Of a DNA stretch of 40,156 nucleotides, positions 243 through 3,032 are shown piece by piece. Below the pieces are notes generated by a model, which was not told the origin of the DNA, did no database searches, and worked only from the letters and a program-made list of their open reading frames with translations. A program made the translations under genes and the position numbers. Source of the DNA: a virus; the IMG/VR virus record IMGVR_UViG_3300027800_000009; one strand, written 5' to 3'. Every line of letters starts with the position of its first letter. Positions within the stretch are counted from its first letter, which is position 1.

Positions 243-704
243 TTGTGCGCCCGCGGACAGTTGCCTTTCTTTTTATTTTTGTCGTTGCTATTGCTCTTGT
301 CGTCGGCGTTTTCGCAGGATGGAGGCTCGCCGCTTCCGGTGCCGGACTGGTCGGAATTATCGGAGCAATCGCCGGAACAGCTTCTAAGCGCGCAGCCGAC
401 GACGCCCGACGTGCAGATAGATCCGCGAATGACGCTCGAGCAGAGGCAAGCAGCGACGCTGCAAGCATGGATCGAGTGGTCGAAAGAGGTGACGATCTGG
501 CAAGAATCGGTAAAAACCTCGTGGAGCAAAGCGAAGAGCTCATACGAGAAAGCGGACAATGCGCGAGTAAAGCAGATTGAGAGCCGTGATATCGAGATAG
601 CGGCGCTCAAGGATCAGCTACGTCAAGCGCAGGCCGCCGTATGGATCGCAGGACTCGGCGGCGCGATTACTGGTTTCATTGTAGACAGAATCGTTTCGCG
701 CTAA
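243..704 (+). CDS. Signal-peptide / coiled-coil / C-terminal TM protein (spanin-like position)
   Basis: Frame of ORF 42..704. Proposed TTG start at 243, after AAGGAAGG (228-235). N-terminus is FFLFLSLLLLLSSAFS, with a coiled-coil stretch KQIESRDIEIAALKDQLRQAQ and a C-terminal TM segment VWIAGLGGAITGFIV. G-ending codons (tcg, ccg, gcg, cag, gag) match the core genes better than the overlapping frame does. The start codon is uncertain. Confidence 0.5.
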   Translation: MCARGQLPFFLFLSLLLLLSSAFSQDGGSPLPVPDWSELSEQSPEQLLSAQPTTPDVQIDPRMTLEQRQAATLQAWIEWSKEVTIWQESVKTSWSKAKSSYEKADNARVKQIESRDIEIAALKDQLRQAQAAVWIAGLGGAITGFIVDRIVSR

Positions 705-760
705 CATTTGCTTAACCTGCAAGGCCGTTAGGGCTTGTCAGGTTGAAGCAGTTGTTAGAT
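699..760 (-). repeat. attC-like site (cassette 6, last in array)
   Basis: Minus strand reads ATCTAAC AACTGC TTCAAC CTGACAAGCCC TAAC GGCCTTGCAG GTTAAG CAAAT GTTAGCG. The R''-like box ATCTAAC contains the TAA stop of ORF 755..943. The far end overlaps the TAA of the convergent plus-strand gene (702-704). Confidence 0.7.
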
Positions 761-943
761 ACCGAGAAGCGCGAAACCACTTCGGCGCGGTTTTCCGTCA
801 GAATAAATCCGGTCGGCTCTGATTCTCACGCTATGAAGGTTTCCTTGTTTTGCTATAACGTAATCGCCATTGAAATCAATTATCTTTAGAACTCTGTTAC
901 CTACGCGCGGGTCATTGTCCTTTATTTTTTGGCCAACTTTCAT
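755..943 (-). CDS. Cassette ORF, 62 aa, hypothetical (resembles small DUF6354-type phage proteins)
   Basis: ATG at 943 follows GGAGGAAGCGAA. The stop TAA lies inside the attC-like R'' box. A/T-ending codons are common (aaa, ata, caa, aga, gtt), unlike the core genes. Confidence 0.7.
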   Translation of the reverse strand: MKVGQKIKDNDPRVGNRVLKIIDFNGDYVIAKQGNLHSVRIRADRIYSDGKPRRSGFALLGI

Positions 944-969
944 TTCGCTTCCTCCGGTTTAGTTCGTGT

Positions 970-998
970 CAGTATAGTCGCCGTAGGCGGGTATACTG
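970..998 (-). promoter_or_regulatory. Cassette-leader hairpin (type I)
   Basis: Minus strand reads CAGTATA-CCCGCCTACGGCGAC-TATACTG, between the preceding attC-like site and the RBS of ORF 755..943. It has the same loop core (CCCGC...GCGAC) as 1589..1616 but a different, compensating stem. Confidence 0.6.
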
Positions 999-1009
999 CT
1001 AAAGAATCC

Positions 1010-1072
1010 ATCTAACATTGAGTTGACCTGCAACCGGCTTTTGCGGTTGTCAGGTCGAACTCGTTGTTATGT
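1010..1072 (-). repeat. attC-like site (cassette 5)
   Basis: Minus strand reads ACATAAC AACGAG TTCGAC CTGACAACCG CAAAAG CCGGTTGCAG GTCAAC TCAAT GTTAGAT. The R' box GTTAGAT fits GTTRRRY. The arms covary relative to 699..760. It shares the same bulged C (TTcGAC) and A (CTGaCAA). Confidence 0.7.
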
Positions 1073-1075
1073 TTC

Positions 1076-1324
1076 TTACATTTCCGGCTTACTGATCTTG
1101 CCGTCGACACCAATAAAATACTTACCATCGATGGTGTTTATCCATCCGATGTAACCGCCCGTCGGCACATTGTAAAAGCCGATCTCCTGAACTACTGCTA
1201 CCTCTGGCATTTTCTGCCCTCCATATAAACCATGGATAACCGCAAGTTCAGCGGCCATCTCAAGGTAATTATCCCGAACTACTTTCGGGAGCTTAACAAA
1301 CTCTGTTGGCGGTATATATGTCAC
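1076..1324 (-). CDS. Cassette ORF, about 82 aa, hypothetical (second gene of a two-gene cassette)
   Basis: Proposed GTG start at 1324 overlaps the TGA of the upstream ORF (GTGA), with GAGG 9 nt upstream. The ORF track uses an alternative TTG at 1333. The stop lies 3 nt before the attC-like site. Confidence 0.6.
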   Translation of the reverse strand: MTYIPPTEFVKLPKVVRDNYLEMAAELAVIHGLYGGQKMPEVAVVQEIGFYNVPTGGYIGWINTIDGKYFIGVDGKISKPEM

Positions 1325-1569
1325 TTTGCCCAACCTCGCGGAACGAATCCTGCTTCTATATATTCTTGAGGATTAGCATGAAAGGCTTGCGCACGCGGAA
1401 TAGAGCCATCTTTATTCCGCGTATTTCCGGGCAATAAAAAAGCGTTTTTGTCATCCCAACACAAAAAAAACCGGCGCCTTCCTTCATTGTCTGGTTTTTC
1501 GTTTTCATCAAACCATTCAAGAAAACGGTTTGTAATTCCATCGTTCTCTATTAGTTCAAGCTGGCTCAT
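1321..1569 (-). CDS. Cassette ORF, 82 aa, hypothetical (first gene of a two-gene cassette)
   Basis: ATG at 1569 follows GGGAGGAGAA. It is translationally coupled to 1076..1324. Confidence 0.65.
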   Translation of the reverse strand: MSQLELIENDGITNRFLEWFDENEKPDNEGRRRFFLCWDDKNAFLLPGNTRNKDGSIPRAQAFHANPQEYIEAGFVPRGWAK

Positions 1570-1588
1570 TTCTCCTCCCGTGGTTCAT

Positions 1589-1616
1589 CCATGTAGTCGC
1601 TACTGCGGGTACATGG
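1589..1616 (-). promoter_or_regulatory. Cassette-leader hairpin (type I)
   Basis: Minus strand reads CCATGTA-CCCGCAGTAGCGAC-TACATGG. It is positioned like 970..998 and has the same loop core. Confidence 0.6.
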
Positions 1617-1626
1617 TGAAGCATCG

Positions 1627-1689
1627 ACATAACATGCTGATAACCTGCGAGGGTTATTTGCCCGAGTCAGGTTGATTGGCTTGTTCGGT
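1627..1689 (-). repeat. attC-like site (cassette 4), degenerate boxes
   Basis: Minus strand reads ACCGAAC AAGCCA ATCAAC CTGACTCGGG CAAATAA CCCTCGCAG GTTAT CAGCAT GTTATGT. It aligns to the other copies, including the CTGAC core and the bulged C. The R'' TAA has become GAA, so the ORF reads into the element. Confidence 0.55.
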
Positions 1690-1842
1690 GTTTTTGGCAC
1701 CTTGTTTAAACAAGTTATACCAAACAAAAGCGCATCCAAAATCGTGATCCCAGTGGCAATCACGCGCCGGACACTTTGCGCAGTCGGTTTCATCTATTAC
1801 GCCAGCCGCTATTTTTACCTCGATACGATTAGGAACTTCCAT
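1654..1842 (-). CDS. Cassette ORF, 62 aa, Cys/His-rich hypothetical
   Basis: Internal ATG at 1842 follows GGGAGGAAGAAG. The longer 95-aa reading would run across the upstream attC-like site. Contains CAKCPARDCHWDHDFGC. The last 12 codons are encoded by the 5' arm of the attC-like site. Confidence 0.6.
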   Translation of the reverse strand: MEVPNRIEVKIAAGVIDETDCAKCPARDCHWDHDFGCAFVWYNLFKQGAKNTEQANQPDSGK

Positions 1843-2186: not shown

Positions 2187-2203
2187 CAGCCGATATGCGG
2201 CTG
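2187..2203 (-). promoter_or_regulatory. Cassette-leader hairpin
   Basis: CAGCCG-CATAT-CGGCTG on the minus strand. A second small hairpin, CGCGGA-CAA-TCCGCG (2164..2178), directly abuts the RBS. Confidence 0.45.
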
Positions 2204-2210
2204 TCCGTCG

Positions 2211-2269
2211 TCCTAACATTAAGTTGAGCCGCGAGCTATTCGCGAGTCGGCTCGAACTTGTTGTTCGAC
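2211..2269 (-). repeat. attC-like site (cassette 2)
   Basis: Minus strand reads GTCGAAC AACAAG TTCGAG CCGACTCGCG AATA GCTCGCGG CTCAAC TTAAT GTTAGGA. It has the bulged C (TTcGAG) and the GAC core as in the other copies. The R'' TAA has become GAA. Confidence 0.65.
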
Positions 2270-2445
2270 GCCGCCCGAAGCCCCCGAATAAAACCAGCAT
2301 AAAAAAACGCGCTTGCATCGCGAGTACAGTCAACGCCGTCTGTAATAAGTAAAAAAGTTTGTTCATCGTCCGTGAAATGACAGTTAGATTTCATGTAACG
2401 ATTCAACGACGCTAGAACCTGTTTATGCCTGTTTATCCTTTTCAT
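2236..2445 (-). CDS. Cassette ORF, 69 aa, hypothetical
   Basis: ATG at 2445 follows AAAGGAGTAAACGAA. The C-terminal residues (ASNNKFEPTRE) are encoded by the 5' arm and loop of the attC-like site. Confidence 0.6.
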   Translation of the reverse strand: MKRINRHKQVLASLNRYMKSNCHFTDDEQTFLLITDGVDCTRDASAFFYAGFIRGLRAASNNKFEPTRE

Positions 2446-2480
2446 TTCGTTTACTCCTTTCGGGCGGTTTAGTTGACCGT

Positions 2481-2501
2481 CCGCATGACGCAGTTATGCG
2501 G
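2481..2501 (-). promoter_or_regulatory. Cassette-leader hairpin (type II)
   Basis: Minus strand reads CCGCATAAC-TGC-GTCATGCGG. It is followed by AACTAAACCG, a motif also found upstream of ORF 755..943. Confidence 0.55.
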
Positions 2502-2512
2502 CGCGTCAATCC

Positions 2513-2570
2513 GTCGAACATTTGCTTAACTCGCGAGTTACCGCGAGTCGAGTTGAAGCAGTTGTTAGGC
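2513..2570 (-). repeat. attC-like site (cassette 1)
   Basis: Minus strand reads GCCTAAC AACTGC TTCAAC TCGACTCGCGG TAAC TCGCGAG TTAAG CAAAT GTTCGAC. GCCTAAC fits RYYYAAC and contains the TAA stop of ORF 2565..2834. The 5' half is 30/30 identical to the solo copy at 16918..16947. Confidence 0.7.
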
Positions 2571-2834
2571 TTCCTTCTTTTCAAACAAATGGAACACGAG
2601 CTGCCCGCCCTCAATCTGAAACGTCCCGATAAACTCCGAAGCGTCACAAACGCACGGGTGCCCTGTTCCGTGAACAATAAGCGTTCGTTCTGCTTTTTGT
2701 TCTTCGGTATCAACCAACGCCCAAATGCATGGCGTTCCATACTGTACCTGCACGGAAAGAATCGCTGCCGTTCGCGGCATAAACACTTTCTGCTCATCGG
2801 TGATTTCGATTGGGAACTTCCAAACGCTCTTCAT
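2565..2834 (-). CDS. Cassette ORF, 89 aa, conserved phage protein of unknown function (DUF7352-like by recollection)
   Basis: ATG at 2834 follows AAAAGGAGAAATT. The motifs FPIEITDEQKV...ILSVQVQYGTPCIWALVD...HGTGHP...IGTFQIEGGQLVFHLFE resemble a widespread small phage family. The family name is from memory and was not searched. Confidence 0.75.
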   Translation of the reverse strand: MKSVWKFPIEITDEQKVFMPRTAAILSVQVQYGTPCIWALVDTEEQKAERTLIVHGTGHPCVCDASEFIGTFQIEGGQLVFHLFEKKEA

Positions 2835-2856
2835 AATTTCTCCTTTTGCAACGTGT

Positions 2857-2882
2857 CGGTATAAGCGCTTGCGGTTATACCG
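2857..2882 (-). promoter_or_regulatory. Cassette-leader hairpin (type I-like)
   Basis: Minus strand reads CGGTATAA-CCGCAAGCGC-TTATACCG, between the attI-like boundary and the RBS of ORF 2565..2834. Confidence 0.55.
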
Positions 2883-2891
2883 TAGTTGTCA

Positions 2892-2925
2892 GCCTAACAT
2901 AAATTATGCTGAACAGCATAAAACC
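2892..2925 (-). other. attI-like boundary of the cassette array
   Basis: Minus strand reads TTTATGCTGTTCAGCATAATTTAT GTTAGGC. GTTAGGC fits GTTRRRY but is preceded by a short palindrome rather than an attC arm. The 13-mer ctaacataaatta plus palindrome recurs at 17291..17322. Confidence 0.5.
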
Positions 2926-3032
2926 CTTATTCTATTCATCCTTGCAGTCTAAAACCTTTAAACGCGCATTTGCGCGCAATAAACAACAAACAGGAAACAA
3001 AATCGCGATAACAGCGCAACCTAATAAAACGA

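Follow-up and report, generated by a model that had tools for sequence, protein, structure and literature searches.

How does a virus without an integrase come to carry a row of repeats that look like the recombination sites of integron cassettes? The question is raised by the IMG/VR virus record IMGVR_UViG_3300027800_000009, a DNA of 40,156 nucleotides that was analysed over its whole length (the window hereafter) and in which an earlier note, made from the sequence alone, had pointed to an integron-like cassette array at 699-2934 on the minus strand. The analysis presented here leads us to consider it probable that the repeats are genuine integron attC sites, that the region is a promoter-proximal array of six cassettes (array 1), and that a second array with a single cassette (array 2) lies elsewhere in the genome, each of them being a cluster of attC sites lacking integron-integrases (CALIN). 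By definition, a CALIN comprises two or more neighbouring attC sites without an intI in the vicinity.

Array 1 contains six imperfect palindromes of 58-64 nt, numbered e1 to e6 from its distal end. They were found where the earlier note had placed them, all on the minus strand and in a single orientation, each directly 3' of a small open reading frame (ORF) or ORF pair of the same strand, and their start-to-start distances of 291-617 bp agree with the claimed spacing of about 290-620 bp. The sites are the following, with their scores under the covariance model R1, which is described below:

699-761, minus strand: attC e1, R'' ATCTAAC, R' GTTAGCG (R1 32.1 bits, E 1.6e-5); distal end of array 1, with R' overlapping the stop codon of the convergent plus-strand ORF 42-704
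1010-1073, minus strand: attC e2, R'' ACATAAC, R' GTTAGAT (28.3 bits, E 1.4e-4)
1627-1690, minus strand: attC e3, R'' ACCGAAC, R' GTTATGT (20.7 bits, E 0.0099)
1918-1978, minus strand: attC e4, degenerate R'' TCCTAGC, R' GTTGGAT (14.9 bits, E 0.25)
2211-2269, minus strand: attC e5, R'' GTCGAAC, R' GTTAGGA (23.9 bits, E 0.0016)
2513-2571, minus strand: attC e6, R'' GCCTAAC, R' GTTCGAC (25.0 bits, E 8.7e-4)

The outer boxes had been said to fit, or nearly fit, the integron consensus, and indeed no box departs from it at more than one position. The R'' consensus RYYYAAC is found in e1, e2 and e6, with a one-position deviation in e3, e4 and e5, and the R' consensus GTTRRRY in e1, e2, e4 and e5, with a one-position deviation in e3 (GTTATGT) and e6 (GTTCGAC). 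When the window was searched with the pattern AACAAYNNNTTCRASYYGAC, allowing up to 2 mismatches, 7 matches were obtained, all on the minus strand, against 0.21 expected, and 0/100 shuffles reached 7. Among 139 members of the site family, a set selected in part by the search pattern, AAC and GTT are invariant in 135-139.

R1 is a surrogate attC covariance model trained on 11 attC sites of class 1 integrons (from four plasmids) and 2 of the Pseudoalteromonas phage PH101, the latter taken from Qi et al. (2023), without any sequence of the window or of phage TJE1, to which we return below. The variable loops were cut to 10 nt and P12002L_attC1 was left out, because a full-length MAFFT alignment misplaced the 3' arms and P12002L_attC1 disrupted it; the placement of the aadA7 attC was checked at the end of aadA cassettes in 3046 plasmids. 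The earlier note had proposed a scan with an attC model, and when R1 was run with filters off over the 40-kb window, its top six matches were exactly e1-e6, all on the minus strand and with scores from 32.1 to 14.9 bits, followed by a next-best match of 9.6 bits, the plus-strand versions of the sites reaching at most 8.8 bits. Five sites have E-values of 0.01 or lower and e4, the weakest of the six yet still the sixth-best match in the window, has 0.25, all of these values being rough in a surrogate model with trimmed loops. As a control, long chromosomal arrays in bacterial loci were recovered by R1 at 23-63 bits. Rfam, which holds no attC model, was scanned over the whole window at the gathering threshold; the hairpins matched none of its families, and only a tRNA was found.

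DNA folding produced the expected hairpin in each element on both strands, with z-scores between -1.5 and -7.4. On the top strand, the six sites present a TAAC-type R'', 8 nt, a bulged C, 6 nt and a bulged A, which is the spacing found in the aadA1, aadA7 and aac(6')-Ib attC sites. On the plus (bottom) strand, a T and a G bulge out of the R''/L'' arm when e1-e4 are folded to minimum free energy (MFE). The extrahelical bases proposed in the earlier note are therefore supported by the C/A spacing in 6/6 sites and by the T/G bulges in e1-e4, but not by the MFE folds of e5 and e6, which deviate from the expected shape (the centroid of e6 is close to it). Site e5 is the most aadA-like of all, with 44/59 positions in agreement with attC_aadA7. 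The note had also described covarying arms with inner boxes behaving like L''/L', and both claims were borne out by compensatory changes in the helix formed by the L boxes and the variable terminal structure (VTS): among the 139 distinct family members, 12/14 pairs of this L/VTS helix show changes on both sides, and 86.7% of its cells are paired, compared with 74% in shuffles and 22-44% with slid partners. The loops vary while the arms stay identical, as in e2 and TJE1_attC2, and the lengths in the family run from 47 to 114 nt. Counts of wobble-type pairs in the attC helix were considered as a test of the selected strand and dropped as uninformative, because the attC core pairs almost entirely through Watson-Crick pairs; the strand question was answered instead by a comparison of fold energies, in which the bottom strand folded better than the mRNA-sense strand in 129 cases versus 11.

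The earlier note was not aware of such an arrangement in phages, and this part of it has to be withdrawn. Qi et al. (Front Microbiol 14:1091391, PMC9892861) examined 10,705 phage genomes and detected 17 CALINs among them, of which one is in the virulent Tetrasphaera phage TJE1, with sites that were called by IntegronFinder and belong to the same attC family as those described here. The attC reading stands, and the arrangement is not new for phages, because the TJE1 CALIN was published in 2023. In that work, recombination of TJE1_attC1 and attC2 with attI1 by IntI1 equalled that of attC_aadA7 in efficiency, and the sequenced junctions lay at G/TT (PMC9892861). In every feature of sequence and structure that could be examined here the elements of the window have the identity of attC sites, and these exact sites are predicted to recombine as well.

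A cassette would begin with the TT of a GTT crossover and end with the G of the following one, and between these limits there would be a leader, an ORF (cassette 5 having two) and an attC site. On this scheme, array 1 is composed as follows:

2835-2895, minus strand: leader of cassette 1, with AGGC-TGAC, a nested hairpin and a Shine-Dalgarno sequence
2565-2834, minus strand: ORF of cassette 1, 89 aa, DUF7352 (E 1.2e-26), phrog_3848
2236-2516, minus strand: cassette 2, leader 2516-2446, ORF 2445-2236 of 69 aa without a family
1982-2214, minus strand: cassette 3, leader 2214-2150, ORF 2149-1982 of 55 aa
1654-1921, minus strand: cassette 4, leader 1921-1843, ORF 1842-1654 of 62 aa, Cys-rich
1076-1630, minus strand: cassette 5, leader 1630-1570, overlapping ORFs 1569-1321 (82 aa) and 1333-1076 (85 aa)
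755-1013, minus strand: cassette 6, leader 1013-944, ORF 943-755 of 62 aa

Taken over the whole window, the cassette products are one DUF7352 protein, one zinc-finger-like protein (in array 2) and otherwise small proteins without a family. The cassette ORFs often run into the attC site, here as well as in the viral loci L023-L102, with the stop codon falling in R'' or in the loop; in cassette 4 the stop codon (1654-1656) lies within the attC loop. Just 5' of R'', certain tails recur, namely AGACGTA/TAAC in 12/126 distinct sites and AGAAGCC/TAAC in 9/126, and they look as though a 3' module provided the final codons.

The earlier note had held that the same hairpins at fixed positions in related genomes, with no turnover of cassettes, would speak against integron sites. 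The content of the array was found to differ between relatives. Contig L097 aligns to the window on both sides and lacks window positions 758-1011, that is, exactly cassette 6; in this contig an e2-type attC is joined straight to the sequence 3' of e1 (junction ...CAATGTT/AGCGC), with about 9 nt of shared sequence at the junction, which lies exactly at G/TT. Contig Ga0209467_1000713 (L002 and L202; JGI 3300027719) is 100% identical to the window over the compared stretches 3410-15224 and 27332-40156, and against window positions 127-3410 it shows a replaced block of about 3.3 kb with flanks of about 89% identity. Its array, placed between a lysozyme gene and the convergent plus-strand gene, holds two different cassettes, for an 86-aa DUF551 protein and a 67-aa membrane protein. 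The distal junction GTT/AGCGCG is common to the window, L097 and L202, behind different attC sites, and attC sites are lacking altogether in L003 and L005, which are more distantly related. Since cassettes or whole arrays are missing or replaced in L097, Ga0209467_1000713, L003 and L005, the hairpins are not a fixed part of these genomes.

The contig closes on itself, as had been claimed, since its positions 1-127 are repeated at 40030-40156, and the genome is circular. The ORFs were assigned from precomputed Pfam hits on the same genome together with Pfam and PHROG scans. All the large ORFs received an assignment and are structural or replicative, with genes for packaging and structure (terminase, portal, Mu-F-like protein, major capsid, neck, tape measure, baseplate and tail fibre) and for replication and recombination (Cas4-like exonuclease, AAA_24, Sipho_Gp157, DUF669, AAA_25 and a DEAD helicase). 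A tblastn search with IntI1 (E at most 1e-3) found nothing in the window or in any viral locus; the same search finds IntI in three bacterial loci, and therefore works. Together with the Pfam and PHROG assignments of the large ORFs, these data confirm for the whole circular genome that no tyrosine recombinase was found, and, with six attC sites within 1.9 kb and no IntI found in the genome, the description of the array as CALIN-type holds. The viral contigs were also scanned with a Treponema IntI, which gave only a distant recombinase.

The earlier note had noticed the attC sites and missed a second conserved part of these cassettes, a structured leader of about 64 nt behind each crossover. 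Every crossover is followed by RRRY-nGAY, a nested hairpin and a Shine-Dalgarno sequence, with a median length of 64 nt. In the window the leaders are placed at:

944-1013, 1570-1630, 1843-1921, 2150-2214, 2446-2516, 2835-2895 and 17234-17294, minus strand: leaders of the cassettes of both arrays

About 15 families of leaders could be distinguished, each of them reused behind different attC alleles and before unrelated ORFs, and the homology between leaders stops at the Shine-Dalgarno sequence. The leader of cassette 1 is also present in L038, L054 and L055, that of cassette 2 belongs to a family found in 4 contigs, that of cassette 3 to a family of 7 contigs (upstream of 7 different ORFs), that of cassette 6 to one of 8 contigs (upstream of 7 different ORF clusters), and that of cassette 5 is 100% identical to a leader in L052. 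The hairpins fold better on the bottom (template) strand in 88 of 106 leaders and on the top strand in 17, with z-scores of -3.3 and -2.1, respectively, and three times more G.U pairs; with DNA parameters, the bottom strand wins in 7/7 leaders of the window, for instance in that of cassette 1 with -10.9 kcal/mol (z -3.4) against -7.7 (z -1.6) for the top strand. Behind 79 attC sites of ordinary bacterial chromosomal arrays, nGAY was present in 3/79, and neither the structure nor the strand bias was seen there. The leader is not simply an mRNA 5'UTR structure, because of this bottom-strand bias, which is absent in ordinary bacterial arrays. By our account the leader module has not been described before.

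Other roles that were considered for the leader were rejected. A sigma-70 promoter in each leader was discarded, as the strict scan found no promoter-like site on the minus strand inside array 1, and a promoter of the single-stranded DNA type is also out, since the stems are too short to hold both the -35 and -10 boxes. As to leader hairpins being miniature attC sites, R1 gave only 9.6 bits on the R-box-like palindromes, and most of them do not fit RYYYAAC/GTTRRRY.

Both arrays begin with an element of the form (G/T)TTAG-palindrome-TAAT-TTATGTT/RRRY. For array 1, the GTTAGGC boundary with a short palindrome before it, as claimed in the earlier note, is present at 2892-2921:

2896-2921, minus strand: attI-like start element of array 1, TTATGCTGTTCAGCATAATTTATGTT, crossover GTT at 2898-2896

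The boundaries of array 1 (2894-2942) and array 2 are 73% identical. At least 10 other viral contigs have arrays that open with an element of this kind, whose crossover GTT is placed in the same way, and it is also found in TJE1, where it is annotated as a terminator and shows compensatory changes in the palindrome. In its layout, a pair of direct GTTAG boxes at a distance of 24 nt that encloses an inverted box, it resembles the simple site plus direct repeat of attI, and the attI of the Treponema integron L115 likewise has 24 nt between its GTT boxes. The attI-like character of the boundary is thus supported by a conserved element that heads both arrays, its function as attI being putative. 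The leader of the first cassette of array 1 follows ordinary attC sites in L054 and L055, and therefore the start junction of array 1 also lies at GTT. Upstream of the element there is a -10-like motif, ATAGAAT, at 2935-2929, where the strict sigma-70 scan called no promoter.

The inventory of six sites in the earlier note was correct for array 1 and missed a seventh, truncated copy at 16910-16948, within the second array (16910-17365). The seventh match of the search pattern, at 16925-16944, led to this array, which consists of one minus-strand cassette placed between two plus-strand head genes:

17337-17365, minus strand: sigma-70-like promoter of array 2, TTGACT-17-TAGAAT, 10/12 matches
17295-17322, minus strand: attI-like start element of array 2, GTTAGGCTGAACAGTCTAATTTATGTT, crossover GTT at 17297-17295
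16943-17294, minus strand: cassette of array 2, leader 17294-17234, ORF 17233-16943 of 96 aa
16910-16948, minus strand: truncated attC, with only R'', L'' and the central stem, without L' and R'

The product of the ORF is zinc-finger-like (phrog_16244, E 3.9e-9), and its TAA stop codon (16943-16945) lies inside R''. The truncated attC shares 97% identity with e6, and 5 nt separate its end from the stop codon of the plus-strand ORF 15964-16905.

A search of IMG/VR with the family pattern returned at least 80 stretches, and R1 finds 173 sites in the 80 stretches, which suggests that the family is common in this collection. Among deposited phage records, TJE1 alone shares the site family. From the related arrays, 94 representative cassette proteins were taken, and those with Pfam hits provided the annotations: five DNA methyltransferases (of four families), Mom, two Lar proteins, RtcB, an AAA_33 kinase-like protein, a radical SAM protein and three DUF551 proteins. 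When bacterial genomes are considered, most occurrences of these arm alleles are in Spirochaetota, one of them on a complete Treponemataceae chromosome, and L111, from a 477-kb Treponema contig, has a two-cassette array with leader type 1 of the window. This evidence is circumstantial and makes a Treponema-like host plausible. Apart from this, one identical attC (TAACAACCGGTTCGAGCGGAC...CTCAACCGAATGTT), with the same 12 nt upstream, was observed in bacterial metagenome-assembled genomes of very different phyla (contigs L107, L114, L115, L123, L135, L145, L159, L173, L184, L188 and L194), which suggests a widely travelling cassette.

Some further features of the genome lie outside the two arrays. 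Five tandem repeats of about 135 nt (61-88% identical) occupy 35404-36165, inside an 804-aa tail-fibre-like ORF (33787-36201), and a tRNA-Met gene (anticodon CAT) is found at 36819-36890, between the tail-fibre and helicase genes. A motif, TGTTTTAATTCTATACC on the plus strand and GGTATAGAATTAAAACA on the minus strand, is repeated at 6920-7031, 17330-17374 and 20520-20564 and resembles a family of phage promoters; the divergent intergenic region also contains a 26-nt inverted repeat (6966-7031).

The way in which we propose that these arrays work is that of an integron whose integrase acts in trans. Each attC would fold on its bottom (plus) strand, presenting the R-box, the L-box, the hairpin of the variable loop and the extrahelical G and T, and an IntI-type tyrosine recombinase, probably supplied by a host integron that may be Treponema-like, would insert and excise cassettes at G/TT, the insertion taking place at the attI-like start element or between existing attC sites. 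The cassette genes would be expressed as the tail of the leftward operon and also from promoters just upstream of the start elements; among the cassettes of related phage arrays there are anti-restriction and counter-defence genes. We infer both this route of expression and the function of the window's own cassettes. In a wider and more tentative form, to which we would give somewhat less than even chances, the phages would share a platform made of an attI-like start hairpin without a linked integrase, one homogeneous attC family and interchangeable leaders of about 64 nt, widespread and unlike ordinary integron arrays, through which phages of wastewater and anaerobic communities pool and swap counter-defence genes; the leader would then be an unrecognised functional part of the recombination or cassette-forming machinery.

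Several observations weigh against this explanation. The 80 viral stretches have no intI in their vicinity, nor have the viral copies of the start element, and a metagenome scan for this element gave 12 stretches, none of them with IntI; no host or cognate IntI was identified. The only cultured carrier of the family, TJE1, infects an actinobacterium, and integrons are rare in actinobacteria. R1 stands in for IntegronFinder's own model and its E-values are rough, and the weakest sites, e3 and e4, have degenerate R boxes. Moreover, hybrid attC sites in L073, L093 and L063 have taken their 5' and 3' arms from two different alleles; they pair poorly for this reason, and a G/TT crossover does not explain them. 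To these can be added the truncated attC at 16910-16948, the array of Ga0209467_1000713, which joins the lysozyme gene without a GTT start element, the leaders that were swapped independently of the ORFs, and the block of about 3.3 kb in this near-isogenic genome, which resembles homologous replacement. Taken together, the hybrid and truncated attC sites, the joint of the variant array, the leader swaps and the replaced block indicate homologous or illegitimate recombination beside the site-specific exchange. The same facts could be read, in a way that we regard as unlikely, as a shuffling carried out by the phages on their own: the hairpins and leaders would serve mainly as short homology linkers, much like the PeSL elements of T4-type phages, and the ORFs between them would be swapped among co-infecting phages by the module of Cas4-like exonuclease, Sipho_Gp157, AAA_24 and DUF669, without recourse to an integron integrase, the likeness to attC being inherited and not used. 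A few near-identical arm alleles and about 15 leader families recur in dozens of viral contigs that are otherwise unrelated, the exchange of leaders follows neither the upstream attC nor the downstream ORF, hybrid attC sites unite the arms of two alleles, the 3.3-kb block with its flanks looks like the homologous replacement of a whole module, and the window carries its own recombination module with no intI near any phage array. Homology linkers, however, could do without a hairpin and without compensatory changes, and they would not require the constant spacing of bulged C and A found in 6/6 sites; the indel of L097, with its short shared sequence, falls exactly at G/TT; and a site with the same arms is an efficient substrate of IntI1. 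Integron-driven exchange and phage-autonomous shuffling are not mutually exclusive.

Two other explanations have, in our judgement, very little chance of being right. The hairpins could act at the RNA level, as RNase III-type processing sites of the sort present between the early genes of T7, or as attenuators or stabilisers in a polycistronic early transcript, as their regular placement between co-oriented small genes at the end of an operon and their ability to fold as RNA would allow; attC sites are also reported to affect the expression of downstream cassettes. In that case the better fold would not be expected on the template strand, where it lies for attC sites and leaders alike, and fixed R boxes, indels at GTT and a match to a canonical attC model are not expected of processing sites. 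Besides the lack of an Rfam match, none of the six attC hairpins appears in the terminator list and no T-run follows them. It is similarly improbable that the arrays are a frozen relic, left by a single capture of a piece of a bacterial chromosomal integron with no exchange afterwards. For it speak the lack of an integrase, the degenerate e3 and e4, the truncated attC and the GC content of the array (45-47%), somewhat lower than in most of the genome; but genomes that are 100% identical over the other stretches compared differ in what their arrays contain, as do close relatives, there are two arrays, each with its own start element, the family extends over at least 80 viral stretches in which the annotatable cassettes carry phage-typical cargo, and the leader of all these cassettes is absent from ordinary bacterial arrays.

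If the elements are integron sites exchanged with the help of a host, as we think probable, integron cassettes in phages would open the bacterial cassette pool to viruses, and phage genes to bacteria. Bacterial chromosomal integrons have recently come to be seen as banks of anti-phage defence genes, and the counter-defence cargo of the phage arrays mirrors such banks. With the window, the family, of which TJE1 is the single cultured example, gains a complete genome of an uncultured phage, whose array is the largest of this kind seen here. What it adds lies in how large the array is and how its content turns over, in the second array, in the conserved start element and in the bottom-strand leader across many uncultured phages. 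In addition, the constant framing of unrelated ORFs by a leader and an attC site may offer a way into the question of how integron cassettes are made.

The closest known system is that of TJE1. The 25-nt 5' arm and the 3' arm of e2 are identical to those of TJE1_attC2, the loop alone being different, and e6 agrees with the third attC of TJE1 at 53/58 positions. TJE1 shares with the window the start element, the architecture of the leaders, the co-orientation of the cassettes and the absence of an integrase. It has three attC sites, whereas the window has six and one truncated copy in two arrays; the cargo differs (there is no methyltransferase cassette in the window), and the phage backbones are unrelated. 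The paper of Qi et al. did not recognise the start element or the leader as conserved parts.

With the classical attC sites of aadA1/aadA7 and aac(6')-Ib, the sites of the window have in common the R''/R' boxes, the imperfect L boxes, the two extrahelical bases, the variable loop and the position 3' of an ORF. They differ in having AAT GTT near R', where the classical ones have AAGC GTT, with a 3' spacer one nt shorter; the family of the window is highly homogeneous across elements and has no linked intI, unlike the attC sites of classical mobile integrons, and no conserved leader was evident after the class 1 attC sites read here. The PeSL mobile regulatory cassettes of T4-type phages also consist of repeated intergenic stem-loops that flank small, variable early genes and are common to several phages. 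They reportedly contain an early promoter and probably work by way of homologous recombination, whereas in the repeats of the window no promoter was found and the integron R/L boxes and extrahelical bases are present.

Chromosomal integrons of Treponema have an intI whose transcription runs toward attI (Wu et al. 2013, PMC3607928). The arm alleles of the attC sites studied here are found in the chromosomes of Treponema and other Spirochaetes, and in L115, where intI is present, attI ends in GATGTT/AGGT, and TGAC or GGAC and then a hairpin follow the crossover; the differences from the window are the presence of the integrase and the location on a bacterial chromosome. Finally, the attG route (Loot et al., bioRxiv 10.1101/2022.09.11.507474) allows a replicon without intI or attI to receive cassettes from the IntI of a host at a GWT site. 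This attG is nearly sequence-free, whereas the insertion point in the window is a conserved element of about 27 nt that is common to many phages.

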